64,000 nucleotides of DNA, taken from positions 32,001-96,000 of the forward strand of contig CAVUWD010000016.1 in NCBI GenBank assembly GCA_963745025.1, in the 5' to 3' direction. Within the stretch, counting starts at the first letter, position 1; every line of letters begins with the position of its first letter. Both the position numbers and the translations under genes were made by a program. Shown piece after piece: positions 36,255 through 52,609 of the stretch. Source of the stretch: an uncultured delta proteobacterium. Its GTDB lineage: Bacteria > Desulfobacterota > Binatia > JACPRU01. The notes beneath the pieces are model-generated. The model was not told the origin of the DNA. It was given only the letters and a program-made list of their open reading frames with translations, and ran no database searches.

Positions 36255-36422
36255 GGGTGGTGGGCCTTTGCCTCTCCGTCGCGGCTTGCGCCAGCGGCGC
36301 AGCGCGCAAGGCGCGGCAGGCAGGAGGCGCTCGGCGCGGCCTCTGAAACCTTCACGGGCGGGACGCTGCCACCCGCGTCGCTGGGGATTTGGCGCGCCAA
36401 TCATCGATCGAAGGAGGAGCTC

Positions 36423-37607
36423 ATGACGAGGCAGGCAGTCATCGTCGCCACGGCTCGCACACCGATCGGCCGCGCGTTTCGCGGCGCCTTCAACCTGACG
36501 CACGGCGCCGACATGGCGGCGCACGTCATCCGCGCGGCGATCGAGCGGGCGGGAATCGAGCCAGGCGATGTGGAGGACGTGGTGCTCGGCTGCGGCCTGC
36601 CGGAAGGCGCCACCGGGAACAACGTGGCGCGCGTCGCGGCGATCCGCGCGGGCTGTCCCGTGACCGTCGCGGGCACCACGGTCAATCGGTATTGCTCCTC
36701 GGGACTGCAGGCGACCTCGATTGCCGCGCAGCGGGTCATCGTCGATGGCGCGCCGGTGATGGTCGCCGGCGGCGTCGAGTCGATCTCGAAAGTCCAGAAC
36801 AGCATGAACGTGAGCGACTTCACCAACGCCTGGATGATGGAGCACAAGCCGGAGATCTACATGCCGATGGGGCAGACGGCGGAGGTCGTGGCCAAGCGGT
36901 ACAAGGTCTCCCGCCAGAGCCAGGACGAGTACGCGCTGATGTCGCAGCAGCGCACCGCTGCGGCGCAAAAGGCCGGAAAGATCGGCGAAGAGATTGCGCC
37001 GATCGACGTGACGATGGAGGTCCGCGACAAGCAGACGGGGGAGACGTCGCAGAAGTCGCTGCACTTCGCCATGGACGAGGGGAATCGCCCCGATACGACG
37101 CTCGAGGGCCTGGCCAGGCTGCCGCCCGCATTCGATCCCGAGGGCACGGTTACGGCCGGCAACTCGTCGCAGCTTTCCGACGGTGCCGCCGCGCTGGTGC
37201 TGATGAGCGACGCGGAAGCAAGGCGACGAAAGCTGAATCCCCTCGGCGCGTACCACGGCCTCGTCGTCGCGGGTTGCGAGCCCGACGAGATGGGCATCGG
37301 GCCGGTCTTCGCCATTCCGAAATTGCTCGAGCGCCACGGGCTCACGCTCGACGACATCGATCTCATCGAGCTGAATGAGGCCTTCGCGGTGCAGACCGTC
37401 TATTGCCGGGACCGCCTCGGCCTCGATCCCGAGAAGCTCAACGTGAACGGCGGGGCGATTTCGATCGGGCACCCTTACGGCATGACGGGGGCTCGGCAGG
37501 TCGGGGCGATCCTGCTCGAGCTCCGCCGGCGCAAGAAGCGGTGGGGCGTCGTCACCATGTGCATCGGCGGAGGGATGGGCGCCGCGGGGCTCTTCGAAGC
37601 GTTCTAA
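36423..37607 (+). CDS. Acetyl-CoA C-acyltransferase (thiolase)
   Basis: NRYCSSG, NEAFA, GHPYG, CIGGGMG. Confidence 0.95.
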   Translation: MTRQAVIVATARTPIGRAFRGAFNLTHGADMAAHVIRAAIERAGIEPGDVEDVVLGCGLPEGATGNNVARVAAIRAGCPVTVAGTTVNRYCSSGLQATSIAAQRVIVDGAPVMVAGGVESISKVQNSMNVSDFTNAWMMEHKPEIYMPMGQTAEVVAKRYKVSRQSQDEYALMSQQRTAAAQKAGKIGEEIAPIDVTMEVRDKQTGETSQKSLHFAMDEGNRPDTTLEGLARLPPAFDPEGTVTAGNSSQLSDGAAALVLMSDAEARRRKLNPLGAYHGLVVAGCEPDEMGIGPVFAIPKLLERHGLTLDDIDLIELNEAFAVQTVYCRDRLGLDPEKLNVNGGAISIGHPYGMTGARQVGAILLELRRRKKRWGVVTMCIGGGMGAAGLFEAF

Positions 37608-37666
37608 CCTCGATCGGGGCTAGCGGGGCCGGTCCCCGCGCGATCCATCAGTTCCGCAGCGGCGGC

Positions 37667-38128
37667 TCAGGCGGGCAGGAAAACGAGCTCGAGCTTGATT
37701 CCGTCCGGGTCTGCGAAGAACACCGCATAGTAGCCGTTCGCATACTCGGGATATTCGCGCGGCGGATCGAGTATCCTCCCGCCCCACCGCTCGACGTTGC
37801 GCGCCAGAGCATCGACCTCCTCGCGGCTCCCCGCGCGGAACGCCACCTCGCAGAGGCCGACGCGGTCCTTCGAGAAGGTGTCACGGGCGTAGCGGGCGTC
37901 CGCTTGCTTGATCCAAAAGCTGCCGCCCTTGCCCGACCAGCCGAAGACTGGAGCGCCGTCTGCCTCCCACTTCTCCGTGTACCCGAGGCTCGGCATTAGC
38001 GCCGCGTAGAAAGGCCGCGAGCGAGCGAGGTCGTTGACGGTCAAGATGACGTGATGGACCCCGCTCGTCGTCGGGATGCACGGACTCGTCGGGGGACAGC
38101 CGCAGCCTCGAGGCGCCTCGCTCGCCAC
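37667..38128 (-). CDS. VOC/glyoxalase family protein (start uncertain)
   Basis: HHVILTVNDLARS..FY, YYAVFFADPDGIKLE. Confidence 0.88.
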   Translation of the reverse strand: MASEAPRGCGCPPTSPCIPTTSGVHHVILTVNDLARSRPFYAALMPSLGYTEKWEADGAPVFGWSGKGGSFWIKQADARYARDTFSKDRVGLCEVAFRAGSREEVDALARNVERWGGRILDPPREYPEYANGYYAVFFADPDGIKLELVFLPA

Positions 38129-38182
38129 GGCGAGACCCTAGCACAGCGCGGGCAGCCGCGCCGCTCGAGCCGCATCGAGCGA

Positions 38183-38473
38183 CTAACCGTCCTTGCTCCG
38201 CCTGCGCTCCTGAAGGATTCGCTTGGCTCGCTCGAGCGTCCGCCGCCGCGAGGCCGAGAGATTCTTGCCGCCGCGGTTGATGAAGTACTGGATCATGCGA
38301 ATCCCCGAGCCGATCCCCTTGGGGCTCACTTTCTTGCTCGCCATTGCGCGGGCGATCGTCCGCGCATCCTTGGTGAACAGGCCCTCGGCTGGAAAGGTGG
38401 ATTCGGTGTTGACGCTCCGAACCCACCTCTTGCCGCTCCTGCGAGCCCGCGTCCGTGTCCGCTTGCGAGTCAC
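38183..38473 (-). CDS. DUF3175 family protein
   Basis: KRWV...MIQYFINRGGKNL...LERAK. Confidence 0.82.
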   Translation of the reverse strand: MTRKRTRTRARRSGKRWVRSVNTESTFPAEGLFTKDARTIARAMASKKVSPKGIGSGIRMIQYFINRGGKNLSASRRRTLERAKRILQERRRSKDG

Positions 38474-38490
38474 TGGGTCCGATTCTCTCC

Positions 38491-38770
38491 GCTCATCGGT
38501 GCCGAACGATTGCGCCGTCCGTCAACCGCAAGCGGGCGAGCGAAGACGGAGCGCTACGCTTCGAGAGCGAGGGCGATACGGAGGGCGTCATTCAAGGCGC
38601 GTAGACGCTCTGAAGGAAGCCCTCCGATGAAGTCGGTGAGAGCAGATTTGGGCAAAGTCACGAGGGCATCGCAAAGGATGCTCGAGAACCGCGAATCGAT
38701 CAATGTCAGCCGGCTCACCACCACGAAGACGCGACTCTGTCTGGGGTCTCCGCCGCCGGGACGACGAACG
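38491..38770 (-). pseudogene. Diverged partial copy of mazF plus its downstream region
   Basis: Direct repeat of 39800..40169 with substitutions and a 90-bp deletion between two TCGA tetramers. Confidence 0.9.
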
Positions 38771-38837
38771 TATGGCAGGCCCGCCTGCTGTACGATCGGG
38801 GCAAGGTTTGGTAGGGTTTCGAGCGAGACGATAGCCG

Positions 38838-39062
38838 ATGCCACACCTGCTTGACCGGATCACCATCAACCCCAACCAGTGCGGCGGGCGGCCCTGCATT
38901 CGTGGCATGCGGATACGTGTCATCGATGTGCTCGAGCTCTTGGCGGCGGGTCAGACCCACGCTCAAATTCTGGCGGACTACCCCTACCTCGAATCGGATG
39001 ACATCGTGGCCTGCCTTCGTTACGCAGCGCGTCGCCTTGACCATCCCACGCTGGCCGCGTAG
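38838..39062 (+). CDS. DUF433 antitoxin
   Basis: RITINPNQCGGRPCIRGMRIRV..ILADYPYLE..DI. Confidence 0.92.
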   Translation: MPHLLDRITINPNQCGGRPCIRGMRIRVIDVLELLAAGQTHAQILADYPYLESDDIVACLRYAARRLDHPTLAA

Positions 39063-39436
39063 GTGACCGACCCGAGTCGCCCGCTCCTCGTTTGGGTCGA
39101 CGCGCAGATTCCCGCCGGCTGCCACTCGTTGGATTGATGATCCCGGTCTGGTTCAGGCGATTCACGTATTCGATCCAGGGTTGGCCACAGCCGAGGATGC
39201 GGAGCTCTTTGAGAAGGCGCGCAACGGCCGGAGCCGTAGTCTTCACAAAGGACCACGACTTCGTGCAGCTTCAGGAACGTCGAGGCGCACCACCAAAGAT
39301 CCTCTGGCTGACCTGCGGAAACGTGAGCAATCGCGAACTTGGGCGGATCCTTGCCACGTGTTGGCCGCGCGCGATGGAGCTTCTGCGCGCTGGCGAGAAC
39401 CTCATCGAGATCAGTGACGCGCGGCCGGCCGTCTAG
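39063..39436 (+). pseudogene. DUF5615 PIN-like toxin, two frameshifts
   Basis: WVDAQIP...AEDAELF...TKDHDF...PPKILWLTCGNVSN across three frames. Confidence 0.8.
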
Positions 39437-39502
39437 TCGAGCCGATAAAGTGGCAACCGGTGCCGACGGCGATCGTACGTGAAACATGTTAGACATCGGC
39501 CC

Positions 39503-39757
39503 ATGACGCGCATGTCCGTGCGAGACGTTCGTCACAAGTGGCCCGAGGCGGAGCGCAAGCTTGCCGCGGCGGGAGAGATCGTCATCACTCGCGACTCGAA
39601 GCCGGTCGCTCGCCTGCTTCCGTACGGCCCGCAGCGCCGGACGAGCCGGGCCCGATTCGATCCGGCGGCGCACCTTCGCTGGCTTCGGGGATTCTGGAAA
39701 GGCCGTGCCGTCGGCATCTCGACCGACGCGTTGCTCCAGCGCGACCGTTCGGAGTGA
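39503..39757 (+). CDS. Phd/YefM-type antitoxin, orphan
   Basis: SVRDVRH...GEIVITRDSKPVARL; no intact toxin follows. Confidence 0.78.
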   Translation: MTRMSVRDVRHKWPEAERKLAAAGEIVITRDSKPVARLLPYGPQRRTSRARFDPAAHLRWLRGFWKGRAVGISTDALLQRDRSE

Positions 39758-39862
39758 GAGCCGAGGCGTCATCGAGGTCGCCGAGGCACAGGTCCGTATG
39801 CTCCTCGGTGCCGAACCATTGCGCCGCCTGTCAACCGCAAGCGGGCGAGCGAAGACGGGGCG

Positions 39863-40192
39863 CTACGCTTCGAGAGCGAGGGCGATACGGAGGGCGTCAT
39901 TCAAGGCGCGTAGACGCTCTGCAGGAAGCCCTCCGATGAAGTCGGTGAGAGCAGATTTGGGCAAACTCACGAGGGCATCGCAAAGGATGCTCGATTCGTG
40001 CTTCAGACTTTCGGCGCTCCCGACCGGAACTTCGGTGGCGAGGCCTTCACGTCGCGTGTAGACCGGAGCGCATACCACCGTCGAGAACCGCGAATCGATC
40101 AACGTTTGCCGGCTCACCACCACGAAGACGCGACTCCGTCTGGGGTCTCCGCCGCCGGGACGACGAACGCGATAGAGATCACCGCGTTTCAC
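39863..40192 (-). CDS. mazF: PemK/MazF toxin
   Basis: [32 protein letters not shown]. Confidence 0.9.
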
Positions 40193-40419
40193 GGCTCCAC
40201 CTGGAACGCCAGAACATCCTCGGTCTCTCGATTGAGGCGTTTGGCCGAACGGTTGAGAATCTCGAGGTCTCTCGCTTCGCGCAGCTGCCGGCGGCGGCGC
40301 TCGACGAACTCCAGCACCGCCTGCTCGACGACCCGCGACCGGGGCATATCCTTGCCGGCCAACTCGTCGATTGCCTCGATTGTCGAGGGTGACAGGGTGA
40401 TTGATGTCTTGACTTTCAT
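40189..40419 (-). CDS. Ribbon-helix-helix antitoxin
   Basis: [17 protein letters not shown]; overlaps the mazF start. Confidence 0.85.
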
Positions 40420-40509
40420 ACCACCAAGATACGACCGACATAGCGAACCGTTCAGCAACCCGCAAGCAGGAACGCTCCTGCATTCCGCCGTTGTCAGGTT
40501 CGAGTCAGC

Positions 40510-40616
40510 CGGGACCTCGAGCCAGATCGCGGAGCGCTCGTCGCAGGCGTCCGTCTCGGTTCCGGTGAAAGCCGCCTTACGAAGTCGACGACCTGCTCGG
40601 AGAGCTCGACCTTCAC
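40510..40616 (-). pseudogene. RelE/ParE-like toxin stub
   Basis: VKVELSEQVVDFVRRLSPEPRR, frameshift, LRRALRDLARG, then truncated; overlaps the antitoxin stop. Confidence 0.6.
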
Positions 40617-40867
40617 CGCTCGTCGAGCGCGGAAAGCGGCAGGAAGCGGGTCTTTCCGGCCCGATGATCCTCGAGCGCTTTCCTCGCGGCCGGATTGGCG
40701 AGCAGCTCCATCGTCTCGACGATCGCGTCGAGACGCTCCTGCGAAAGGATGTAGGCGACCGTCCGATCGCGCCGGCTGATCGCGATCGGACGCCCGCTTT
40801 CGGCGTCGCGAATGAGGCGCGGTAGCTGACTCTGAGCCGCAGTGACCGTATACGTATCCTTACCCAT
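40613..40867 (-). CDS. Phd/YefM antitoxin
   Basis: TVTAAQSQLPRLI..PIAISRR..ETMELLANP. Confidence 0.85.
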   Translation of the reverse strand: MGKDTYTVTAAQSQLPRLIRDAESGRPIAISRRDRTVAYILSQERLDAIVETMELLANPAARKALEDHRAGKTRFLPLSALDER

Positions 40868-41102
40868 GGCTCTGCGTACACTAGCGCTACAGGCGGGCGG
40901 TCTCTAGCCGGAAGACGTCGGCACGCAACGGGCTGGCGGATCGCCCCGCGGCACTCACTGGACTTGCCGAGGGTCGCGATCGTCACGTCGTCGGCGCTCC
41001 GCGTCGCGTAGCCGAGAACGATTCGTGGAAGCATGGCCGTTGCCTCGCGGCGAGGGACAAGGCGCTGTCGGCTTCGAGTTCTCGCATGCTAAGGTCGTCC
41101 TC

Positions 41103-41549
41103 GTGAAGAAGCTCGAGCGCTTCCCGGTCGGGGTGTTGCGCGAGGGCGCGGACCGAGCGGCTGCTTTCTTGCGGCGTGATCGGAGAGTGCGCCTGGTCTA
41201 CGTTTTCGGCTCCGCGGCGGATCCGACTTGCAAATTTGGTCGCGATCTCGATCTCGCCATCCTTTGCGTCCCGTCGCCGTCTCTCGACGAGCTCATGAAG
41301 CTCCGCGCCGACGTGGTTGCCGAGGCTCGCTGCCCGGTGGACCTCGTTTCGCTCGGTGAGGCCTCGGTGGTGCTCGCGAAAGAGGTGGCGGATGCCGGTC
41401 GTTGTCTCTTCGCGGCTTCGCCGGACGTCGAGGTAGAGTTCGTCACACGCGCGCGTGCTCGCTACTGGGACTTCAAGCCGTTTCTGGAAGAGCAGTGGCG
41501 CTCGGCCGGCCGCCGCGCGGAGGAACGATCGCGTGGTCCTCAGGCCTGA
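41103..41549 (+). CDS. MNT nucleotidyltransferase antitoxin (MntA-like)
   Basis: YVFGS...DLDLAI...VDLV..L. Confidence 0.85.
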   Translation: MKKLERFPVGVLREGADRAAAFLRRDRRVRLVYVFGSAADPTCKFGRDLDLAILCVPSPSLDELMKLRADVVAEARCPVDLVSLGEASVVLAKEVADAGRCLFAASPDVEVEFVTRARARYWDFKPFLEEQWRSAGRRAEERSRGPQA

Positions 41550-41985
41550 AGCGGTCCGCGAACGGCTGCTCAAGCTCGAAGAGGTGATCTCGCGCCTCGA
41601 TGAGCTCCGCCGGTCCGCGCGGAAGAATCGCGGCTTTCGCGACGAGTGGGCGGCCGAGCGCGGTTTGCAGCTCGGAGCCGAAATCATTCTCGACGCGAGC
41701 AACCACATTCTCAGCGCGCATTTCGGCGTGAGCGCCGAGGACTACGAAGATGTTCTCCGCCAACTCGTCAAGCAAGGCGTGATCGACGACGCGATGGGAG
41801 GCCGGCTGAAGGGCTTGGGAGGTTTTCGCAACATCTTGGTTCACGGATACCTGCGTGTCGACCCGGAACGGGTGGCGGAATTCCTCGCGCGGGCGCCGCG
41901 GGATTTCACCGACTACGCCCGAGCGGTTCGCGGGTGGCTCGAGCGGGTTCTGGCTGAGCACGCGACGCCTTCGGTCTCCGGATAG
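41533..41985 (+). CDS. HepT/DUF86 HEPN ribonuclease toxin
   Basis: AERGLQ and the RX4HXY motif FRNILVHGY. Confidence 0.9.
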   Translation: MVLRPEAVRERLLKLEEVISRLDELRRSARKNRGFRDEWAAERGLQLGAEIILDASNHILSAHFGVSAEDYEDVLRQLVKQGVIDDAMGGRLKGLGGFRNILVHGYLRVDPERVAEFLARAPRDFTDYARAVRGWLERVLAEHATPSVSG

Positions 41986-42151
41986 ACTTCACTCGCGTTG
42001 GGCGAAGCCTGAAAGTGCTCCTGCCTTCTGCCGGCGTCGGGTTCGAGTCGGCCCCTCCAACGCCTGCTGACGAACGACGACCGTCAGGCAACGGCCGCGC
42101 GGACGCTCGGTCTCCAGGTCGGCGTTCCGCGCCGAGCTTCGTACCCGAGCT

Positions 42152-43266
42152 TTACTTCGCAGAGCCGAGGGCGGGCGGCTGGAAGTGCGCCGAGAAGTCG
42201 GCGTCTTCGTCGCTGCCGCCGTCGAGCCCGTCGCGGCCGAGAGTCGCAATCGTCACGTCGTCGGCGCTCGGCTCGTAGCGGTAGGGCCGGCCCCAGGGAT
42301 CGTAGAAGCGCGGGTCGGCGCGCTCGGCGAAGCGCCGCCACATCGCCTTGTCCGGGTAGGCGCCGTGCTCGGTGTGATAGCGGTCGGCGAAGTCACCGAG
42401 CACCTTCATCTCCCGGTCGATTCGATGATGGAGATTCGCGAGCCGATCCTCTGGAGTCGGCAGAGTCGATACCAAGCCCAAGAGCGCGAGCGAGGTCAGG
42501 CCGATCGAGATCCACGTGAGCCAGAATTTCTCTTTCGCGGTGTGCGTTTCGCTTCGCTGGATCAGCAAGGGCCCGACGAACGGGACGAGGGCGAAGTACG
42601 ACGACAGGCGCTTGTCGGCTGCGAGCAGCTCGCCGACCATCTGCGGCGCTTCGGAAGAGGGGCCGTTGGCAATGAGCGCGGCGAGGGCGTCGCGCGAACG
42701 AGTCATGGGAGGCAGAGTGGCCTGCTTCGCCAGGGGCGTCTCCTTCCCATTCGGCGGCGCGGCGGGAGCGTCTTTGGTCAGCGCAAGCGCAGAGCACGCC
42801 GCGCACAGGCCCGTCACTCCGGACGAGAAGCGGCCGAGCTCGACGTCGCAGCGGAGGCGAGATCCATGTGAGCCGGAATTTTTCTTTCGCGGTGTGCGCT
42901 TCGCTTCGCTGGATCAGCAAGGGCCCCGACGAACGGGACGAGGGCGAAGTACGACGACAGGTGCTTGTCGGCTGCGAGCAACTCGCCGACCATCCGCGGC
43001 GCTTCGGAAGAGGGGCCATTGGCAATGAGCGCGGCGAGGGCGTCGCGCGAACGAGTCATGCGAGGCAGAGTGGCCTGCTTCGCCAGGGGCGTCTCCTTCC
43101 CATTCGGCGGCGCGGCGGGGGAGCTTCCGGTCAGCACGCGCGCGGAGCACGCCGCGCAGAGGCCCTTCACTCCGGACGAGAAGCGGCCGAGCTCGACGCC
43201 GCAGTGGAGGCAGGTGGTTTGCGTGGAAGGCGAGGGTGAGCCAACTCCTTCGGCCGGCTCGGCCAT
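42152..43266 (-). CDS. CxxC + membrane + GspG (T2SSG) domain protein, interrupted by an internal tandem duplication
   Basis: CLHC/CAAC, two hydrophobic segments, DPWGRPYRY..TLGRDGLDGG..DAD; continuous frame only 42152..42817. Confidence 0.7.
42506..43211. repeat. Tandem duplication, period about 352 bp
   Basis: 42506..42858 aligns with 42858..43211 with scattered substitutions. Confidence 0.92.
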
Positions 43267-45095
43267 CAGAAGTCGTGCCAAGCGAGCGCGGTGTACGAGC
43301 TGCCCCCGCAGGTCACGTTGCCGGGCGTCGTGGAGGGGTAGCCAAGTGTGACATTGGAATTTCCGTTCAGCGTAAGCGATCCGACGATTAAACTGGTATT
43401 CATGACCTGATTGGCATGTCCCTGGAGCTCCGCCGGCGCACCCCACGCGTAGATGACGCCATCGAGGGTGTAATTGCCGTTTGTCCCACCCTGCAGATTG
43501 ATGCACCCGAGCGGCGTGGGATTGCCGCATGTGGGCTGGTTAGGACTGATGGAGGGATTAGGCAAATTGCCGTTGGAGTCGGTCCGATTCTGGTAGATCA
43601 AGAAGCCCGCCATACCCGTGCCGACGAGGCCGTAGTTGTCGGGGCCCGTCGGGGGGTTTGTGGTCGGATCCGTGGTCGGCGCTATCAAGGTGACCGTTGC
43701 GTTCGCCGGTGCCTAGCGCGTTCACGGGGCCGTAGTTGCCGCTCGCTGCACGTGGGACAGAGCGGGTCGAAAGTGTTGACGATCGTTACCCCATTGCCGG
43801 TGATCGTCGGGGTGCCGCCACCGACGTTGAGGCCTCCCCCGGCCATTACGTAGAGGCCAGGGTCGAGCGTGACGCTGTTGTTGAGGTGGAGCCCTCCCCA
43901 GTAGATCCCGGGGCTCAACTGCGTGACGGTTGAATCGGGATTAGATGTTAGCGGAGCGTTCGCCGTTCCCGCGCAGCCCGAGCACGACGGACTGCTGAAA
44001 GCAGAATTCGCGGGTACCGGACTCGGGACCGGCCCCGCGGGCAGCGACGGTGGATTCACGTTGCTGAACGGGTCGACTATCGTAGGTTGGTCCGTCTGCG
44101 GCGGGGGACTGTACGTCGGGCTCCCGTCGACCCTCGAGCCGGAGACATCGATGCCGCAATTGGTGAGACTGCTGTTGGTGCAAGCAGTGATCGAGTTGTT
44201 GTTAACACCAGAAGTCGACTCGCTCGAGTTACAGCTCGCGGGCGGCGACCCGCCAAAAACGGGAGGCGCGCCGGCATTTATCTGGACCGAGCCCTCGGCG
44301 GTGATGGTAGCGCCACCGTTCATATCGATCCCAGGACATCCAAAGTTGGAAGTCAGAAGGCTCCCGAGAGGATTACCGGGATTCGTGTCTCCGAGATCCA
44401 CCGCGCGAACCTTGACCGTTCTGCTCGCGACGACGGAGCCATCGTTACGCCTGACCTCGCCCGTCGAAGTGATCTTCACGATGTTTCGCGTATTGCTACA
44501 GCCGGGTTGCGTACGCTGGCGGATGTCGCCAGCGGCGGTACATCCGTAGCGCACGCCAACGTCGGCAGGCTCGCAGCGATCCCACTCCATTTTCAGATTT
44601 GTCGATGAGCCTGAGCTTCCTGTCGAATACGTGACGGGATACGCGGCCTGCTGCAGCGTCGGAACCTCAACGTTCGGAACGGAGACGGAAGGCGCCGTGG
44701 AGTTGAACAATACCTGGATGCTTGGAAGATCAGAAAGCAGACGTCGAGACCGTAGGGAGAGCTGTTCGCTGAACAATGGACCGGCCGGGCACGGCGTCGC
44801 TCCGTCGCGATATCGCGTGTAGAGAGAGGCGTCGAATGTACCCGGGCCGGGGCTGATCGTCACGTTGCTCTGCCACCGCGCGTTCCCAAGCGGAAGAGAG
44901 CCTCGTTGATCCCTGCCTCGGCGGCGTAGATCGCCTGCTTCTCGTTCTGGAGGTTGCTGACGACCTGAACGTCGGTGCGGGTGAGCGTGCCGCGAAGAAC
45001 GCTGTCAGGCTCAGTACGACGAGAAAGACGAGAACGGTGGCAAGTATAAAGCCGCCTTCTCGGGCGATCCTCATGGACGTGGGCAGTTCTTTCAT
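43266..45095 (-). CDS. PilX-like minor pilin with a long Gly/Ser/Thr/Asn/Cys-rich C-terminal domain (several frameshifts)
   Basis: EGGFILATVLVFLVVL, AIYAAEAGINEA, ITSTG, PGIYWGG, LDPGLY; spread over four ORFs. Confidence 0.75.
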
Positions 45096-45112
45096 AGGGG
45101 CCTCTCGTTTGC

Positions 45113-45748
45113 TCAGCAGGGCTTGTTTCGCAGACGAACACTCTCCGTCTCCGTCCGCGTCAAGGGCAAGCCGCCGATGACGGAGCGAGTCACGGTCAGT
45201 GAGATATCGATCGCAGCGATGAGGTCTCGATCCGCCTGGGTCGCCGGGCTAAAGGTGGTGCCGTCGCACCGCCGATAGGTCAATGTCAGGCCGGCGCCGC
45301 CGTTCGGGAGCACTACGTTGTCGGCGAGCACGTTGCCGGTCCACGGGTCGCCGCCCGCCGTGGCGTCGAGCTTCAACAGATCCGTTCCGGAAAGCTCGAA
45401 ACCCTTGTGCTCGTTCGGAGCGGTCGCGGTGACGACGCCGTCATCGTCCGCGTCGAGCTGGAACTCGATCGTCTGTGCGTCCGCAGCCAGAATCTTGGGG
45501 GCGGCGCTACCCGAGAGGTCCATCCTCGCGGAGCGGAGGTCGCGTGCCATCTGGTCCATCGCGGTGCGGAGCGCCTGCGAGGTTTCGATCTCGATCTGGT
45601 GGTGCTTTGCCGCGCGCTGCTCGGAGACGTAAAATCCCGTGAAGCCCGCCATCAGAAGCGCACAGACCACGATCACGACCAGTAGCTCGACGAGCGTGAA
45701 GCCGCGGTTAGACGCCGAGATTGTATTTGAACCGGACGATAGTTGCAT
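45113..45748 (-). CDS. PilW-like minor pilin
   Basis: Prepilin motif RGFTLVELLV, MARDLRSA, C-terminal VRLRN. Confidence 0.88.
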   Translation of the reverse strand: MQLSSGSNTISASNRGFTLVELLVVIVVCALLMAGFTGFYVSEQRAAKHHQIEIETSQALRTAMDQMARDLRSARMDLSGSAAPKILAADAQTIEFQLDADDDGVVTATAPNEHKGFELSGTDLLKLDATAGGDPWTGNVLADNVVLPNGGAGLTLTYRRCDGTTFSPATQADRDLIAAIDISLTVTRSVIGGLPLTRTETESVRLRNKPC

Positions 45749-46198
45749 TCACCAGTCGGTTGTTGGGCATCGAGACGGTCACCGTGATCTCGTTTCACCG
45801 GATCCTGCAGGGCACCACTCGGGTCAGGTGTAGGGATGACTAGTGGAGAGCTGCCAGTCGCTCGGCGTTCACTACCGTCCACTGCACGTGGTAAGGGCCG
45901 CTGCCAGTGCCGTCCGCGTTCACGGTGACAGGCGGGATGAGCGCCGGCGCATTGGCTACGGACGAACACGTGATCAGAGAAGCTGGCGCTGGGCAGCCAG
46001 TCGGCGTTGCGTTCGGATCGGGCGAAGCAGTGTCTCCATTCGGTGCTCGGCGAGACTCATCGCCGCCGAGTTCGAATCGGTCGTGATTCGATGATGGATC
46101 AGTCTCTCGGTGAGTCCGCCAACCGCGATCACGACGAACGCGCCGATCAGCATGGCGACTACCGCCTCGATTAGCGTGAAGCCCTTGCTACTGAACAT
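45749..46198 (-). CDS. PilV-like minor pilin (frameshifted)
   Basis: KGFTLIEAVVAM, AMSLAEHRME.L; stop abuts the pilW start. Confidence 0.78.
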
Positions 46199-46691
46199 TG
46201 ATGCGCCCGGTGGGTTGAACGAAGATCGTTCGCCAAGCGCCCGCCTCGTTGGTAATGCGAATGACTGGATATGCATTCGAAACAGCCTCGGGGTTTCCCC
46301 GTGGGTTCAAGACCGCACTCGTGGGGGTTCCGCCTGAACCGTTGTCGATACCAGCAGAATCGATTTGTTTTGCGCCGACTTCTAGGGTGTCCGCGCCATA
46401 ACTAGTCGTTCCACAGGTTGGGGCACCGGTTTTGCTTCGGACGAGATAGGTCTTCGCCGACGTATCGAAGCTCACCATGAAACATTTGTTTTCCGCGATC
46501 GCACGCCCGCGCACCTTCTGCAACTCCGCCGCGAGATCCCGGGCCGCCCCCTCGAGCCGATAGATCGGCACCAGCGTCGACATCCGCACCCACGCGATCG
46601 TCAGCAGGATGCCGCCGATCGTGATCACCACGAGTACCTCGATCAGCGAGAAGCCCTTCATGGCTTCCCTAGAGAAACGTGTGTTCGTCAT
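46188..46691 (-). CDS. FimT/GspH-like pseudopilin
   Basis: KGFSLIEVLVV, AARDLAAELQKVRGRAI, NPRG, VQPTGRI. Confidence 0.88.
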   Translation of the reverse strand: MTNTRFSREAMKGFSLIEVLVVITIGGILLTIAWVRMSTLVPIYRLEGAARDLAAELQKVRGRAIAENKCFMVSFDTSAKTYLVRSKTGAPTCGTTSYGADTLEVGAKQIDSAGIDNGSGGTPTSAVLNPRGNPEAVSNAYPVIRITNEAGAWRTIFVQPTGRINVQ

Positions 46692-46736
46692 GCTGAGATC
46701 TGGGCAGGCCAACTGCGGCCCCCCTCCTCGCCGAAT

Positions 46737-47070
46737 AACAGAGTAGCAGAGGGGAGGCCTTTCGCAAAAGAAAACAAACTCAGGCAAACGTCTGATCGCT
46801 CGGAGAAAATCCCCAATCGATTCCGGTTACTCGGGGAATTTCGGCTCAAGGTCAGGGTCATGGTCCGGTGCGACATACCACGTTCCTCCTACGCCCTGCC
46901 GGTTGAGACAACAGAGTAGCAGAGGCGAGGCCTTTCGCAAAAGAAAAGAAAATCAGGGGGATGTCTGATCGCTCGGAGAAAATCCTCAATCGATTCCGGT
47001 CACTCGGGGAATTTCGGAGCAAGATCAGGGTCATGGTCCGGTCGGACATGGCGACGTCCATCCTACGCCC
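46737..47070. repeat. Tandem duplication (about 170 bp) of fimT upstream region + pilB 3' stub + DUF433 5' stub
   Basis: AACAGAGTAGCAGAGG...TCAGGGTCATGGTCCGGT...CCTACGCCC occurs twice; each copy has minus-strand TTGCGA-N16-TACTCT. Confidence 0.9.
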
Positions 47071-47187
47071 CGCCGCTTCCCTGTATACGGCGCCGCGACT
47101 CTCAGGGGCGCGAGCGGCGTCGTTGCGACCTGGCATGAAGATCGATATCACCCGCGACATACGACAAGAGGATCGATCGGAGAGGAC

Positions 47188-47394
47188 ATGGAAACGGTTA
47201 CGATCTCGCCCAAGTTCCAGGTGGTCATCCCAAAGGAAATCCGCGACACGCTGAAGCTCACTCCGGGCCAGAGGGTACAGGCGATCCTCTATGAAAACCG
47301 CATCGAGTTGATTCCCGTCCGGCCGATCAAGAAGATGAGAGGATTCTTGAAGGGAATCGACACCTCCGTGCCTCGTGAGGGAGACCGGGTCTGA
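47188..47394 (+). CDS. AbrB/MazE-type antitoxin
   Basis: VTISPKFQVVIPKEIR..LKLTPGQ. Confidence 0.92.
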   Translation: METVTISPKFQVVIPKEIRDTLKLTPGQRVQAILYENRIELIPVRPIKKMRGFLKGIDTSVPREGDRV

Positions 47395-47783
47395 ACGTCG
47401 TCGACTCGTCGGGCTGGCTGGAGTACCTAGCCGATGGCCCAAATGCGAAGTTCTTCGCCCCGCCGATCGAGAACGTCCGAGCGCTTCTCGTACCGTCGAT
47501 CAGCGTCTACGAAGTTTTCAAGCGCGTCCTGCAGCAGCGGGGCGAAGGGTCCGCGCTGCAGGCCGCGGCCCTGATGCAGCAGGGCGAGATCATCGACCTC
47601 ACCACGCCCTTGGCATTGGCAGCCGCGCGGGTGAGCCTCCAGGAGGGGATTCACATGGCCGACAGCGTCATGCTCGCCACCGCGCGGGCCTTCGGAGCCA
47701 CCCTCTGGAGCCAGGACGCCGACTTCGAGAGGCTGGCGGGGGTGAAGTACGTTCCCAAGAGGGCCGCAGTCGAAAACCGCTAG
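47391..47783 (+). CDS. vapC: VapC PIN-domain toxin (apparent CTG start)
   Basis: NVVDSSGWLEY, YEVFK, ADS..LATA, QDADF. Confidence 0.88.
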   Translation: MNVVDSSGWLEYLADGPNAKFFAPPIENVRALLVPSISVYEVFKRVLQQRGEGSALQAAALMQQGEIIDLTTPLALAAARVSLQEGIHMADSVMLATARAFGATLWSQDADFERLAGVKYVPKRAAVENR

Positions 47784-47912
47784 GCGCCCGGTCATGCGGC
47801 GGGGCTGGTCACGGCGGTTTGCACGAACCCAATAGACGCGCGCGGGGCCGACCCATCTCGAGAGCGTGGAAGAGCGCTTCGATCCGAATCTGCCGCGACT
47901 CTCGCCAAGACG

Positions 47913-48013
47913 CGCTCGTTACCGATCATTCGATTCCGGTCACTCGCAGCACTTCCTCGATCGTCGTCATGCCCCGGCGGACCTTGTCGAGGCTGCTCTC
48001 GCGCATGGTGCGC
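47913..48013 (-). repeat. Duplicate of the pilB 3' end (about 100 bp)
   Basis: Near-identical to 49042..49143. Confidence 0.92.
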
Positions 48014-48074
48014 AAGCGAATGGCTTCCGGTGACCCGATCCGCTACGCCCGCGCCTTCGTTCGGAACCGCGCTT

Positions 48075-48398
48075 CTACGGTGGCAGCTGGAGCTCCACTA
48101 CCGAGCCCCTCGTCAGGGTGGGGAGAATTTTCTCGATCTCTGGCAGCAGCTTGACCACCACCGGTACCTGATTGCTCGGTAGAACCATCACGCCGAGGCT
48201 CCGCTTCGAGAGATCTTGCTGGTGACGCAGGTTCTGGTCGGTGGTCACGAGGACGTCGAACCGCTCACGTTCTGCGAGGCTCAGCAGCTCGCCGTTCTTC
48301 ACGCCCGCCCAACCCATGTCCTGGACGGTCTGGATCTCGTGTGATCGCAGTCGCGCCTTGATCACACTTGGCGTACACTCGTCGAGCAGGACCTTCAA
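48075..48398 (-). CDS. DUF5615 PIN-like toxin
   Basis: KVLLDEC, MGWAGVKNGELL, TTDQNLRHQQ. Confidence 0.88.
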   Translation of the reverse strand: MKVLLDECTPSVIKARLRSHEIQTVQDMGWAGVKNGELLSLAERERFDVLVTTDQNLRHQQDLSKRSLGVMVLPSNQVPVVVKLLPEIEKILPTLTRGSVVELQLPP

Positions 48399-48655
48399 GC
48401 CGCCCGGCCGAGCTTCCGGAGCGTCGCCCGGTAAAACTCGAGGACAGCGACCGCTTGATCTCGGGTCACGGTCGGAAAGTTTTCCAGGAACTCGTCGAGC
48501 GTGAGCCCCGCTTCAAGATTGCTGATGAGGGCGTCGACCGGGACGCGGGTTCCCCGAAAGACCGGCGCGCCGCTAATGATCTCCGAATCAACGGTGATCG
48601 GCAGTCGATCGATTTCGTTCTCCGGGATGATCAGGGTCATGGTCCGGTCGGACAT
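48395..48655 (-). CDS. DUF433 antitoxin
   Basis: SGAPVFRGTRVPV..FLENFPTV. Confidence 0.9.
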   Translation of the reverse strand: MSDRTMTLIIPENEIDRLPITVDSEIISGAPVFRGTRVPVDALISNLEAGLTLDEFLENFPTVTRDQAVAVLEFYRATLRKLGRAA

Positions 48656-48790
48656 CGTAAGTCGATCCTACGCCCGGCCTCTTGCCCTGTCCACGGCGCC
48701 GCGACTCTCAGAGCCGTGAGCGGCGTCGTTGCGACTTGGCATCAAGATCGATGTCCGCGACATCTGACAAAAGGATCGATCGGCGAGGAC

Positions 48791-49028
48791 ATGAAACGGT
48801 TACGATCTCACCGAAGTTCCAGGTGGTCATCCCAAAGGAAATCCGCGGCACGCTGAAGCTCACGCCGGGCCAGAAGGTACAGGCGATCCTCTATGGAAAC
48901 CGCATCGAGTTGATTCCCGTCCGGCCGATCAAGAAGATGAGGGGATTCTTGAAGGGAATCGACACCTCCGTGCCTCGTGAGGGAGACCGGGTCTGAACGT
49001 CGTCGACTCGTCGGGCTGGCTGGAGTAC
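48791..49028 (+). pseudogene. Second abrB copy (1-bp deletion at the start) and 12-codon vapC stub
   Basis: 48629..49028 is a direct repeat of 47023..47427; ATGAAACGG versus ATGGAAACGG. Confidence 0.85.
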
Positions 49029-49053
49029 CGAGCCGGCTACTCGCTCGTTACGC

Positions 49054-50868
49054 TCAATCGATTCCGGTCACTCGCAGCACTTCCTCGATCGTCGTCATGC
49101 CCCGGCGGACCTTGTCGAGGCCGCTCTCGCGAAGCGTTCGCATGCCGAGAGTGAGCGACTTCTTGCGGATGTTGGCGGCGTCGGCTCGGGCCACGATCAT
49201 CTCGCGGATCTCATCGTTGATCGGCAGCACCTCGTAGAGCGCGGTCCGTCCGCGGTAGCCGGTCTGCGAGCACTCGTCGCAGCCCTTCCCGTGATAGACC
49301 TTGAGATCCTTCACCTCGCTCTGCGAAAAGCCGAGATCGACCAGCGACTCGGGAGAGGGAGGGTTCTCGATCGGACTCCTGCAATCGGGGCAGACGAGCC
49401 GCACCAGCCGCTGCGCGGCGACGAGCAGGATCGAGGATGATACGAGGAACGGCTCGACGCCCATGTCGAGCAAGCGGGTGATCGACGTCGGAGCGTCGTT
49501 GGTGTGCAGCGTCGACAGGACGAGGTGGCCGGTGAGCGCCGCCCTGATGGCGATCTCCGCGGTCTCGTAGTCGCGGATCTCGCCGACCATGATCACGTCG
49601 GGGTCCTGTCGGAGGAAGGCTCTGAGCGCGGCGGCGAACGTGAACCCGATCTCGAAGTTCACCTGCACCTGATTGATGCCGTGCATGTTGAGCTCGACCG
49701 GATCCTCGGCGGTCTGGATGTTGCGCACCGATTTGTTGATCTCCGAGAGCAGCGAGTAGAGCGTCGTGGTCTTGCCGCTGCCGGTCGGGCCCGTGACGAG
49801 GACCATCCCGTAGGGCCGCTGGATCGCGCGCTGGAAGTGCCGGAGCTCCTCGGCCTCGAAGCCGAGGTTGGTGAGGTCGAGCTGCAGGCCCGTCTTGTCC
49901 ATCAACCGCAGCACCAGCTTTTCGCCGTTGATCGTCGGCAGCGACGAGACGCGGAAGCTCATCTCCTTGCCGGCCGGCAGGCGAATCTTGATCGCCCCGT
50001 CCTGAGGCAAGCGCCGCTCGGAGATGTCGAGCGCGGCCATGACCTTGATGCGGGACGCCAGCGCCGCCTTGAAGCGGGGCGGCGGCTGCATGATGTCGTA
50101 GAGGATGCCGTCGATACGGAAGCGGATGCGGAGGTCGTTCTCGAAGGGCTCGATGTGGATGTCGCTCGCGCGCCGCTCGACGGCGTCGGTCATGAGCGCA
50201 TTGACGAGCCTGACGAGCGGCGCTTCCTCCGTCGCGCGCTGCAGCTCCGCGAGATCGATCTTGGCCTCGTCGCGCACGAGCTGGACTCCGTCGCCGTTCA
50301 TTCCCGTCAGCGCATCCGAATAGGCTTTCGCGCGCTCGTTGTAGTGCCGGTCGATTCCCCTGCGAATTCCCCGTGCGGGCGCGAGCACGATGCGGACGTC
50401 GCAGCCGGTCAAGAACTTGCACTCGTTCAGCCCGGCGAGGTTCGAAGGATCCGCCATCGCCAGCGTGAGCGTCGACCCCGTGAGGCTGATCGGCAGCAAC
50501 TCGTGCTTGCGGGCGAGCGTGTCGGGAATCAGACTCAGCACCTCGGCAGATGGCTCGGCGCTCAGCGGGTCGATGATCGGAAGCCGGTACTCCTTGTGGA
50601 GAAACGAGGTGATGTCTTCATCCGAGACGAAGCCGAGGCGAACGAGCGCCGCCGCGAATTGGCCCCCGTTCTTGTGCTGATCCGCCGCCGCCGCCGCGAG
50701 CTGCTCGGCGGTTATCACCTCACGCCGGAGAAGGATCTCCCCGAGCCGAGAAGAGGGTGGGGGACGGATCGGCGAGATCACGGGAGAGGACGTGGAGGGC
50801 ACGGCGGGTGCGCCTGTATTTTCGGGGAGGTGCTTGCCCTGCCGTTCCGCCTGTTCGTTGGTCGCCAT
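49054..50868 (-). CDS. pilB: Type IV pilus assembly ATPase PilB/GspE
   Basis: RLGEIL, ASDIHIEP, Walker A GPTGSGKT, RQDPDVIMVGEIRD, TLHTND, tetra-Cys motif. Confidence 0.95.
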   Translation of the reverse strand: MATNEQAERQGKHLPENTGAPAVPSTSSPVISPIRPPPSSRLGEILLRREVITAEQLAAAAADQHKNGGQFAAALVRLGFVSDEDITSFLHKEYRLPIIDPLSAEPSAEVLSLIPDTLARKHELLPISLTGSTLTLAMADPSNLAGLNECKFLTGCDVRIVLAPARGIRRGIDRHYNERAKAYSDALTGMNGDGVQLVRDEAKIDLAELQRATEEAPLVRLVNALMTDAVERRASDIHIEPFENDLRIRFRIDGILYDIMQPPPRFKAALASRIKVMAALDISERRLPQDGAIKIRLPAGKEMSFRVSSLPTINGEKLVLRLMDKTGLQLDLTNLGFEAEELRHFQRAIQRPYGMVLVTGPTGSGKTTTLYSLLSEINKSVRNIQTAEDPVELNMHGINQVQVNFEIGFTFAAALRAFLRQDPDVIMVGEIRDYETAEIAIRAALTGHLVLSTLHTNDAPTSITRLLDMGVEPFLVSSSILLVAAQRLVRLVCPDCRSPIENPPSPESLVDLGFSQSEVKDLKVYHGKGCDECSQTGYRGRTALYEVLPINDEIREMIVARADAANIRKKSLTLGMRTLRESGLDKVRRGMTTIEEVLRVTGID

Positions 50869-51577
50869 GATTTGGTCGCCTATCATACAGAAAGAAGTGC
50901 CGCTGATGCGAGCGCGATGACCATCGACGCGCATCGGCGCGAATCACGCCATATTATTGACGAATTGGTTCGGATTTGTGCGGGTCGCCTAAAACGGTGC
51001 GTGGAGAAGGCAACCTGCCTCTGATAGTAGGCGGCGGGCGCTCGCAAGAAAAAGCGCTCAGTTACCCAGGATTTTGACCGAGCGCGGCGTCGTCGGGAGA
51101 TCCGGTATGAAAGTTGCGAAGCGAGAAGGCACGGCTCGCCGAACCCGCTTCGGCGCACGGCGATCTATCCGGGTGAGGAAGACAACGATCCCAAGAGTTG
51201 GGTGGAGGTGTTCGACGGGCTCGAGACGAGGAAGGCGGCGGCGGTAAAGGAAATGGGGACTCGAGCCCGATACGATCGAACGATGGAGGGGCAGGGCTGA
51301 TGGGGTCGGCGAGCCGTTCCGCACTGGGTCCGGCGCTCTTCCACGGGTGCTGGTCGACACGCTTCTTGGCGACGTCACCTACGCCTAGCCTCGATCAGAA
51401 ATCTCTTCTGTGACCTGAACGCGCCGGGCTCGCGCCTGGCTTGTCCGCCACGAGCTTCTTTCTCGAAGCCCTCCATGCCCCAAGAGACGGCATCGTGGTA
51501 GACCTGGCGCTCGTGACGCGCCGGACCGTGGCTCGCGGCTCGCCACAGCCGCTGCGGTTGACCCCGCCGCGGCTTCG

Positions 51578-52609
51578 ATGAATTTTGAGCTGCGAACTCG
51601 AAGGGAGCTTTTTCTGAAGACCGCTCTGTTTCCACGCCTCGTCAACGGCCCCTTCGGGGATCCGGGCCTGTTCGTCGGCCTGCGCTGGCAGGGGCGTGCG
51701 CTGCAGTTCGATCTCGGCCGGCTGGGACGGATGGAGCCCGGTGACGTGTTGAAGATCTCGCACGCGTTCGTTTCCCACGCTCACATGGACCACTTCATGG
51801 GTTTCGATCACCTGCTGCGCCTGTTCCTGCCGCGCGATGCCGTCCTGCACGTCCATGGCCCCGAGAATTTCCTCGCTCGCATGGGCGCTCGGCTCGCCGG
51901 CTACACGTGGAACCTCACCGAGGACTATCCGCTGGTGATCGTCGGACACGAAGCGCGGCCCGACGTCGTCGTCTCGGCCACGTTTCGCGCCGCGACCGGC
52001 TTCCTCCCCGAGGAGCGGAGCGAGCGCCCGTTCGACGGTCTGCTCCTCGACGAGCCCGCGCTCTCCGTCTCGGCGGCGATCCTCGATCACAAGATTCCCT
52101 GTCTCGCATTCGCGCTCGCGGAGAAGTCTCATCTGAACGTGGATACGTCGGTGCTCGAACGCCGCCACCTTCAGCCGGGCCGATGGATCGACGCGCTGAA
52201 GCAGGCGATCCGCACGGGCGCCCCCGACGATCAGCCGCTGACCGCGCTCGTGCGGGAGAACGGCGCGGTGCGCGAGCAGCCGCTGTCGGTCGGCTCGCTT
52301 CGCGAGCTCGTCATCGCCTCGCGCGGTCAGAAGATCGGTTACGTCGTGGACACGATCTACAGCGCGGGAAACCAGCAAAAGATCGTCGAGCTCGTGCGCG
52401 AAGCGGATCTCTTCTATTGCGAGTCGCCGTTTCTCGAGGAGGACGTCGAGCAGGCAACGAAGCGTTATCATCTGACCGCCCGGCAGGCTGGGCTACTCGG
52501 CCGGGAGGCGCAGGTGCGCCGGCTCGAGGTGTTCCACTTCTCGCCGCGGTACGAGGGCCGCGCGGACCAGATTTACGCCGAGGCCCGCGCCGCGTTCCTC
52601 GGCGGATGA
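51578..52609 (+). CDS. RNase Z-like metallo-beta-lactamase fold hydrolase
   Basis: LVNGPFGDPGL, SHAHMDH, LDH.IP, YHLTA, FHFSPRY. Confidence 0.85.
   Translation: MNFELRTRRELFLKTALFPRLVNGPFGDPGLFVGLRWQGRALQFDLGRLGRMEPGDVLKISHAFVSHAHMDHFMGFDHLLRLFLPRDAVLHVHGPENFLARMGARLAGYTWNLTEDYPLVIVGHEARPDVVVSATFRAATGFLPEERSERPFDGLLLDEPALSVSAAILDHKIPCLAFALAEKSHLNVDTSVLERRHLQPGRWIDALKQAIRTGAPDDQPLTALVRENGAVREQPLSVGSLRELVIASRGQKIGYVVDTIYSAGNQQKIVELVREADLFYCESPFLEEDVEQATKRYHLTARQAGLLGREAQVRRLEVFHFSPRYEGRADQIYAEARAAFLGG

Follow-up and report, generated by a model that had tools for sequence, protein, structure and literature searches.

Toxin-antitoxin cassettes interleaved with displaced gene 3' ends at a type IV pilus locus of an uncultured Binatia bacterium

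The stretch of DNA considered here, called the window, is 64,000 nucleotides (nt) of contig CAVUWD010000016.1 (positions 32,001 to 96,000) in a metagenome-assembled genome (MAG; GCA_963745025.1) of an uncultured soil or sediment bacterium of the class Binatia. It belongs to a 1.14-Mb contig; the MAG comprises 5.65 Mb in 20 contigs at 66% G+C, with a completeness of 92.65% and a contamination of 7.6%. Between positions 38491 and 49143, around genes for a type IV pilus, lie toxin-antitoxin (TA) genes interleaved with diverged direct copies (85-97% identity) of the 3' ends of three genes: mazF, a pilin-like gene with a GspG domain, and pilB. Positions are those of the window unless a contig label (C5, C13, C16 and so on) is given. 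G000 is this MAG, other G and L numbers are other genomes or contigs, and L117 is the same as G007.

Genes were assigned with Pfam on 29 open reading frames (ORFs), and repeats by self-BLAST of positions 36000-52000 together with repeat finding. Four intact TA pairs are present: MazE of the ribbon-helix-helix type with MazF, MNT with HepT, AbrB-type VapB with the PIN-domain protein VapC, and DUF433 with DUF5615. Five further modules are broken or orphaned, namely a mazF stub, a DUF433 gene with a twice-frameshifted DUF5615 gene, a weak Phd-like gene, a YefM gene, and a second vapB with a truncated vapC. In addition, there are two 27-nt stubs of the DUF433 5' end. The systems are predicted to be type II, as adjacent antitoxin and toxin genes of known families. 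An earlier reading of the sequence (the original prediction) had reported nine TA modules or stubs in 10.6 kb, from six families; the nine stand, while the Pfam count gives five TA pair types. The diverged direct repeats of neighbouring gene ends that it described around the cassettes were recovered in the same places, and a pair that it had missed, 40474-40510 and 42017-42053, was added.

From left to right, a thiolase gene, a glyoxalase gene and a DUF3175 gene lead into the first array. The mazF repeat consists of two blocks, 38491-38685 with 39800-39994 (96.4%) and 38682-38770 with 40081-40169 (95.5%), and extends 63 nt past the mazF stop. From the displaced mazF copy the first 8 codons are missing, and a further 87 nt (29 codons) have been deleted internally, in frame. 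One nucleotide of the frameshifted DUF5615 gene, at 39111, is absent from sister-strain contigs, so that one of its two breaks may be a strain-specific or assembly indel. The displaced fragment of the GspG-domain gene encodes ..SADDVTIATLG.., the same as the intact gene. Together, this fragment and the copy at 40474-40510 look like the old 3' part of the gene and its downstream sequence, with the YefM gene now between them. The repeated downstream sequence, which holds GGTTCGAGTC, was also considered as a tRNA 3' fragment and rejected, as no T-arm pairing was possible by eye and ARAGORN found no tRNA. The MNT/HepT pair is convergent on the GspG-domain gene. This gene is broken by a 353-nt head-to-tail duplication into ORFs of 238 and 221 amino acids (aa); its ortholog in L117 is a single gene of 234 aa. 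The original prediction suggested that the pilus could be a phage receptor or a DNA-uptake machine; PADLOC gave only a weak match, of the MNT protein to the candidate system PDC-S09 (E 1.4e-5 to 7e-4). Rfam found no RNA family in 37500-49500.

After the GspG-domain gene, a minor-pilin operon runs from fimT down to a DUF7305-like protein. The end of pilB occurs four times, as the original prediction had it: the real end and three stubs, one of 108 nt and two of ~22 nt. The 108-nt stub encodes ..LRTMRESSLDKVRRGMTTIEEVLRVTGIE* (tblastn, 86% over 29 aa) and differs from the intact end by 2 silent and 5 mostly conservative changes. The short stub at 46985-47006 matches 49053-49074 in 22 of 22 positions, and that at 46812-46833 in 20 of 22. 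Each sits in one of two 173-nt units, made of native pilB-fimT spacer, the last ~22 nt of pilB and a 27-nt DUF433 stub.

The pilB array is better read as two copies of a ~1.6-kb unit holding the pilB end, DUF5615, DUF433, a divergent promoter, vapB and vapC. The aligned parts of the two units (47023-47433 and 48629-49035) span the DUF433 5' stub, the promoter, vapB and the first 40 nt of vapC. In copy I, DUF5615 is gone and DUF433 is reduced to 9 codons; in copy II, vapC is gone beyond codon 13 and vapB has a 1-nt deletion after the ATG. Different genes were lost from the two units, and thus they complement each other; the toxins were hit first. In copy I the vapC frame, open from a TGA at 47376 onwards, offers no ATG, GTG or TTG ahead of the conserved VVDSSGW. 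Its sole possible start is a CTG at 47391, where the truncated copy II is identical. In a distant genome of the class (L239, G319:C22), AbrB-type VapB, PIN-type VapC and DUF433 genes stand together with a DDE transposase gene adjoining, a trio that hints that vapBC and DUF433/DUF5615 travel as one composite. A separate observation concerns C10:61287-61454 (L304:6266-6487), where the C-terminal 56-73 aa of a T2SSE (pilB-like) ATPase are encoded by an orphan stub without a gene body, with a PPTase gene on one side and a glycosyltransferase-sulfotransferase gene on the other.

The arrangement is the same in all seven cases in which an intact host gene abuts TA cargo: the intact gene comes first, the cargo is convergent on it, and a repeat of the gene's 3' end closes the series. 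Five of these genes are in this MAG, namely pilB, the GspG-domain gene, mazF, a livF-like gene and a 634-aa gene on C13, and the other two are in G067. The convergent orientation was noticed after the fact. Five of the copies, those of pilB (the 108-nt stub), mazF, livF, the C13 gene and the G067 SnoaL-like gene, extend 11-66 nt past the stop. What has been displaced is a conserved part of each host gene (pilB, an ABC ATPase, the pilin-like gene and others), and the toxins are encoded separately. An insertion point fixed at 11-16 nt past the stop was considered and rejected, as five measured borders share no common sequence and a 22-nt pilB copy ends 1 nt past the stop.

To judge from the substitutions in some pairs, the copies may once have been functional alleles. 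Two ComM/YifB copies in G055 have a ratio of nonsynonymous to synonymous substitution rates (dN/dS) of 0.118 at a dS of 1.1. Between the two cassette copies of the window, vapB is 95.2% identical in its coding sequence and 85.2% in the adjoining promoter and stub region (p=0.0008), and the mazF pair is 97.3% identical in coding and 92.1% in non-coding sequence (p=0.07). The mostly conservative changes in the pilB stub agree with this.

Table 1. Features of the TA arrays and their borders, in window coordinates.
Position	Strand	Feature	Evidence
38183..38473	-	DUF3175 gene, left border of first array	PF11373 E 2e-9
38491..38770	-	Displaced mazF copy	self-BLAST; PemK_toxin match C-terminal only
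38838..39062	+	DUF433 antitoxin-like gene, copy a, intact	PF04255 E 1.5e-26
39063..39436	+	DUF5615 toxin-like gene, copy a, two frameshifts as assembled	Pfam profile positions 47-100 only; three-frame translation
39503..39757	+	Phd-like orphan antitoxin, weak	PF02604 E 0.0038, below cut-off; no toxin gene after
39800..40192	-	Intact mazF (39863-40192) and 63-nt downstream sequence	PF02452 E 4e-13, profile 1-108
40189..40419	-	mazE, ribbon-helix-helix antitoxin	PF01402 E 0.004 within ORF 40189-41034; overlaps mazF start
40474..40510	.	Copy of sequence downstream of GspG-domain gene	84% to 42017-42053
40613..40867	-	YefM/Phd orphan antitoxin	PF02604 E 5.5e-12; no toxin partner
40966..41002	-	Displaced GspG-domain gene 3' fragment	91.9% to 42236-42272 (37 nt, E 2e-8)
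41025..41985	+	MNT (41025-41549) and HepT (41455/41533-41985)	PF18765 E 1.5e-12; PF01934 E 5e-20
42017..42817	-	Intact GspG-domain gene (42152-42817) and downstream sequence	PF08334 E 4e-7
42506..43211	-	353-nt head-to-tail duplication, GspG-domain gene 5' half	42506-42858 / 42858-43211, 93%
46188..46661	-	fimT/GspH-like minor pilin, downstream border of pilB array	PF07963, PF12019
46737..47082	-	Two 173-nt tandem units beside fimT	46737-46904 ~ 46910-47078, 87.6%
47188..47783	+	vapB (AbrB type, 47188-47394) and vapC (PIN, ~47391-47783), copy I	PF04014 E 6e-9; PIN E 2.5e-11
47910..48017	-	Displaced pilB end: 92 coding nt, stop, ~14 nt downstream	90.7% to 49039-49145
48075..48655	-	DUF5615 (48075-48398) and DUF433 (48395-48655), copy b, intact	PF18480/PF18478; PF04255 E 3e-19
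48629..49035	+	Copy II: divergent promoter, vapB, first 40 nt of vapC	92.2% to 47023-47433
49054..50934	-	Intact pilB, T2SSE ATPase	PF00437 E 7e-147; orthologs 94%, 77%, 75% aa

The earlier report of no integrase or transposase was borne out. In a genome-wide search with hidden Markov models (HMMs), none of the 22 tyrosine recombinase matches and none of the 4 serine recombinase matches fell within the window or less than 100 kb from any array, and no transposase domain was found by Pfam among the 29 ORFs. The nearest PF00589 tyrosine recombinase match on the contig is ~237 kb away, and no IntI-type integrase stands beside the array. The same search picked up recombinase fragments down to 40 aa elsewhere in the genome. 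Repeat finding gave no terminal inverted repeats at the cassette borders, and the flanking duplications range from 22 to 515 nt. The cassettes lie on both strands and are separated by host gene ends. Islands at tRNA ends also occur in this genome, at tRNA-Arg (C16:632k), tRNA-Met (C16:781k), tRNA-Leu (C14) and tRNA-Ala (C13); they retain integrase remnants (C16:634354, C16:781843), whereas the TA arrays have none. By the tests made, with no dedicated attC model among them, the TA arrays are not an integron, an integrase island or a transposon. The window also contains a tRNA-Arg(ACG) gene (3176-3250) and a tmRNA gene (61258-61610, tag ADNNFALAA), and a repeat scan found no repeated 3' fragment near either.

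The original prediction proposed asking whether TA pairs elsewhere in the genome are flanked by gene-end duplicates, and some of them are. Local repeats were collected in every 12-kb stretch, TA genes were located with nine Pfam families, and a module was counted as bracketed when direct repeats of at least 85% identity and at least 35 nt lay on its two sides no more than 8 kb apart. Bracketing was found for 10 of 36 TA modules, against 3.4% of 20,000 random 650-nt sites. With stricter limits (at least 87%, no more than 5 kb), the figures are 9 of 36 and 1.2%, and for inverted repeats 1 of 36 and 0.4%. The 36 modules are not independent, as they are clustered in few arrays. When repeat loci were merged, 6 of 46 held TAs. 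Thirty-five of the other 40 were fetched and scanned, and they are mostly an 85-nt dispersed repeat, tRNA-end islands, insertion sequences and neighbouring paralogs.

Three clean cases lie outside the window. On C5, vapBC and a MOSC gene are flanked by a repeat (98.6%) that comprises the final 499 nt of a livF-like ABC ATPase gene and 16 nt beyond it, and the stub runs on into a 112-nt piece of livG (87%). On C13, the last 42 nt of the 634-aa gene and 13 nt downstream are repeated (98%) around a convergent mazEF, directly upstream of pilD. At C16:494-501k, the C-terminal end of a STAND/TPR-type gene (..HAERLARELGA) occurs four times, in alternation with HicBA, HigBA, two PIN pairs and a decayed vapBC. 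A related arrangement with other cargo is present at C8:249948-252172 (L034), where the last ~175 nt of a CitMHS transporter gene, seemingly frameshifted near its end, are repeated (88%) around a GT2 glycosyltransferase gene and a methyltransferase fragment.

The dispersed repeat of ~85 nt has a terminal hairpin (..CCGTAGAAACGGGGCG..) and separates single metabolic genes outside the window, among them NmrA, cupin, AlkZ, aldo-keto reductase, O-methyltransferase and molybdopterin oxidoreductase genes. It occurs on C4 (6 copies), at C17:47488-63213 (5), C6:513420-522690 (3) and C16:835361-842650 (3), and as a variant at C18:38587/39993. Tyrosine recombinase genes lie near several of these clusters (C17:44925, C6:500347, C4:29522, C18:39816), and Rfam gave no match at three loci. 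The repeat could be a cassette-array site or an element like repetitive extragenic palindromes. Two large neighbouring duplications, at C16:995729-1002597 (2.9-3.2 kb, 92%) and C20:246416-257108 (1.8 kb, 94%), could be paralogs or chained haplotypes.

Across the class, the best match per genome was examined with 1.5-kb flanks. PIN loci were bracketed in 5 of 29 cases, short flanks counted, and PemK loci in 5 of 25, a count that leaves out four short-flank loci and one unpublished genome; only 2 of these 5 have repeats of at least 33 nt. Among the controls, bracketing was seen at 0 of 27 glyoxalase loci and 1 of 27 GNAT loci (a 28-nt repeat), each set leaving out two short loci and the MAG itself. 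Pooled, this is 10 of 54 TA loci against 1 of 54 controls (Fisher one-sided p=0.004), or 7 of 54 against 0 of 54 when only repeats of at least 33 nt are counted (p=0.006). Loci of homologues of the window vapBC were bracketed in 3 of 11 cases (2 of 9 without two from unpublished genomes). Seven other genomes of the class, each assembled separately from this MAG, have the same anatomy. Among the positives that were annotated (L320 by ORF calls only), G067 has the arrangement of the window twice: a convergent vapBC lies between copies of a SnoaL-like gene's 3' end (115 nt, 90%), and a convergent mazEF between copies of another gene end (60 nt). The two ComM/YifB C-terminal copies of G055 (466 nt, 78%) flank vapBC, and in G052 the 5' region of a methyltransferase gene is repeated between two PIN pairs. 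The class-wide enrichment is support, not proof.

The content of these sites varies between strains and relatives in empty sites, indels and permuted order, as predicted for the pilB-fimT and GspG intervals. L117, which among the genomes with the operon is the closest (pilB 75% aa), and the metagenome contig L038 (77%) have an empty pilB-fimT spacer of ~160-170 nt. L117 has the same operon order, with mgtE next after its GspG-domain gene and no TA. Scanning metagenomes with pilB also gave the nearest relative, L037 (94% aa), but its contig is cut 111 nt before the pilB stop, so that its site is unreadable, a hint of a repeat rather than evidence. Among species representatives there is no close relative of the MAG.

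Sister strains were compared through assembled Logan contigs of four sediment-metagenome runs, X1-X4 (word share 0.20-0.24), with a 31-nt rule for the sides of a joint. Array parts without contig cover in these runs and joints with sides below 31 nt (38795>40713, 39697>40715, 48266>49558) were not used. In contigs of other runs, vapC is linked to the pilB stub (47475-47964) and, in X3, the vapC stub to pilB (48314-49092), which covers two of the three pilB-array junctions. One 173-nt unit is absent from an X4 contig. X1 and X2 have 13 nt in place of the 110 nt after HepT (41986-42095, which include the 37-nt repeat 42017-42053), and X1 and X3 have 51 nt in place of 39224-39463. In X1, X2 and X3, 42054-42111 is joined via 25 nt to the stop side of DUF3175 (38182). 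The DUF433-DUF5615-Phd block lies ~360 nt to the left of this join in X1 and is also on the X3 contig. The order of the first array is thus permuted or tandemly repeated in sister strains.

A recombinase-free displacement of 3' ends, in which a cassette with its anchor in a conserved gene end is brought in by host recombination and the units later duplicate and decay, has in our judgement about an even chance of being the right account. DNA from a diverged relative, carrying a conserved gene end and a TA cassette, would pair with the resident gene as a homologous anchor. The far end of the incoming DNA would then be joined illegitimately inside or just behind the resident gene. The resident gene would retain an intact end, and the old end with a few bases after its stop would be pushed downstream as a dead stub. 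Unequal recombination between copies would later duplicate units, with redundant toxins decaying first to leave orphan antitoxins. Around TAs the scars would persist, since a crossover between the two copies would remove the TA and bring on post-segregational killing. Inserts with an active TA would outlast others, which would explain the enrichment without a TA-specific insertion step. Two places, just past the pilB stop and after the GspG-domain gene, could be recombination hot spots, a suggestion that we believe and doubt in equal measure. The original prediction of a repeated insertion that regenerates the host gene end fits the displaced ends, the variable content and the recurrence, but part of the pilB array is more readily taken as a duplication of a whole unit than as a set of separate insertions.

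Duplication in place followed by decay, through unequal crossing-over in one lineage and with neither foreign DNA nor anchored import, would also produce repeats of this kind. It accounts well for the complementary deletions of the two 1.6-kb units and the 173-nt tandem, for the 353-nt duplication in the GspG-domain gene, and for the joint that goes back from 42111 to 38182 in three runs, which fits a tandem of the whole first array; the relaxed dN/dS of the STAND stubs (0.38-0.67) suits it too. We nevertheless consider it unlikely as the whole explanation. New cargo between two gene-end copies (livF, the C13 gene, G067) would need an extra exact deletion, different TA families lie between copies of one end, and the sites are empty in relatives. 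Moreover, coding sequence is far better kept than non-coding sequence, with the low dN/dS in G055, and collapse of a pure tandem leaves one TA copy and hence gives no protection by addiction. An assembly artefact, with chained strain haplotypes whose alleles pass for copies, is very improbable, even though the MAG is contaminated, strains or species can differ by as much as the copies do (85-97% identity), and the L037 contig stops where a repeat would be expected to stop it. Switching between haplotypes does not produce joins to unrelated sequence such as those at which the stubs end, two of the junctions are crossed by contigs of other runs, and the anatomy recurs in the seven genomes assembled elsewhere.

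The arrays might also be leftovers of islands whose integrases target gene 3' ends, or non-autonomous modules (Xer/pdif-like or integron-like) moved by a recombinase acting in trans. Islands classically leave a replacement end and a displaced copy, as they do in this genome at tRNA-Arg, tRNA-Met, tRNA-Leu and tRNA-Ala. The 22-nt pilB-end copies and the 55-nt C13 repeat are of att-like size, and TAs should outlast the rest of a decaying element. Yet no integrase or resolvase match or fragment was found near the arrays, whereas the tRNA islands keep remnants. The repeats vary from 22 to 515 nt with no sequence common to the sites in a by-eye comparison, no terminal inverted repeats flank the cassettes, and the cargo is just 0.8-2 kb, all of which makes this explanation quite improbable.

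Several observations weigh against displacement by anchored import. Post-segregational killing and the illegitimate join are steps that we infer from the anatomy, and microhomology at the joins can be read only with a donor at hand. The search for a donor among 400 other genomes of the class, with a 2.1-kb pilB-side cassette as the query, found none: the best vapBC match was 75% at the nucleotide level, and the search otherwise gave ordinary pilB ends only. Codon-position counts in the mazF, pilB, livF and vapB pairs give 6-10 changes each, and the substitutions are too few to tell import from decay; the copy divergence of 4-15% could have built up in place. The STAND stubs appear relaxed, and the arrays that consist of stubs only (C16:494-501k and G055) are co-oriented with their TAs and adjoin no intact host gene. 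The unit duplication, the two small tandems and the joint that goes back show that plain unequal recombination is also at work, and the CitMHS end flanks non-TA cargo, so the join is not TA-specific. The structure was checked on assembled Logan contigs rather than raw or long reads, in a MAG with the contamination given above, and on one side of junction 48017/48018 the contig cover is just 23 nt, under the 31-nt rule. Finally, the loci of the class survey are single best matches from related genomes and are not independent, and the control genes are perhaps more conserved or older.

A bolder version of the displacement account, in which chromosomal TA cassettes travel by gene-end capture, is unlikely. 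In such capture, a TA and one copy of a conserved gene end would form a minimal mobile unit that needs no recombinase of its own. The unit would leave as a circle, through recombination between copies, or as a linear fragment; RecA would target it to the same gene in relatives, where it would regenerate that gene and leave the old end behind, and addiction would block the reversal. The arrays of stubs only (STAND, and ComM in G055) would then be units in transit, and the convergent orientation and the bias to pilus and competence genes (pilB, the pilD neighbour, ComM) would be a matter of design and not of chance.

Displacement of 3' ends without a recombinase has precedents, and the system need not be undescribed, as the original prediction had suggested: the anatomy matches what is proposed for Rhs and type VI secretion system (T6SS) loci (PMC5361080). 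For the T6SS effector-immunity arrays of Vibrio cholerae, a homologous anchor and an illegitimate join are proposed (Kirchberger et al. 2017, PMC5361080). There, modules are added beside conserved machinery genes, and the old 3' part and its antidote are shifted downstream to form orphan arrays, with no integrase (PMC5361080). Rhs C-terminal displacement (Jackson et al. 2009, as cited in PMC5361080) likewise leaves an intact gene followed by strings of orphaned 3' regions that each open with a conserved piece. The cargo of the arrays described here consists of cytoplasmic type II TA pairs, unlike secreted T6SS effectors. Their displaced ends come from housekeeping or pilus genes, and from many unrelated ones, rather than from a toxin, and the cargo is usually convergent on the host gene. 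The orphan cdiA-CT/cdiI arrays of contact-dependent inhibition (CDI) have the same layout of orphaned 3' regions after an intact gene. In Rhs and CDI loci the toxin is the variable tip in the displaced frame; here the end is invariant in function and the toxin sits in a separate operon. The process works like Rhs, CDI and T6SS displacement but is not a member of that group, since the displaced end is not a toxin tip.

Homology-facilitated illegitimate recombination in transformable bacteria admits foreign DNA through one-sided homology without a recombinase (PMC5361080, PMC3240628), which would explain the anchoring in conserved gene ends. It is rare in experiments, and the duplication of the anchor would be its outcome here. 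Integron cassette arrays are described as stabilised by TA cassettes (PMC13108822, PMC11023631). They resemble the present arrays as TA-rich rows of small cassettes in which newer ones push older ones back and TAs are thought to guard the array, but in the window there is no IntI-type integrase, both orientations occur, and host gene ends separate the cassettes, where integrons have attC sites. Integrase islands at tRNA or gene 3' ends share the regenerated end beside the insert, the displaced copy at the far side and the tandem accretion; they keep integrase genes or remnants, and the TA arrays keep none. The minimal mobile elements of Neisseria are exchanged between conserved flanks without a recombinase and are not known to leave duplicated gene ends, which are present here. 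The pdif modules of Acinetobacter, TA modules among them, are exchanged by host recombinases at 28-bp Xer sites on plasmids; no plasmid modules bounded by 28-bp Xer sites were found here. Literature searches, with subscription journals mostly outside their coverage, returned no description of gene-end duplications around TA pairs.

A 2020 review calls the integration of TAs into genomes "unelucidated" (PMC7167474), and the finding bears on that question. The scar, made of an intact gene end, convergent TA cargo and a displaced copy of the end, is a footprint by which TA insertions may be dated and counted in any genome. It is present in this MAG and at about one-sixth to one-eighth of the class TA loci sampled, against 0-2% of controls. 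The scar points to host recombination and not to a dedicated enzyme, and it predicts that addiction preserves inserts flanked by repeats. The logic of displacement would thereby be extended from secreted polymorphic toxins to ordinary cytoplasmic TA pairs, and it would explain the build-up of orphan antitoxins in arrays. With its mechanism drawn from anatomy, the scar offers a testable clue to how TA gene pairs may enter chromosomes.

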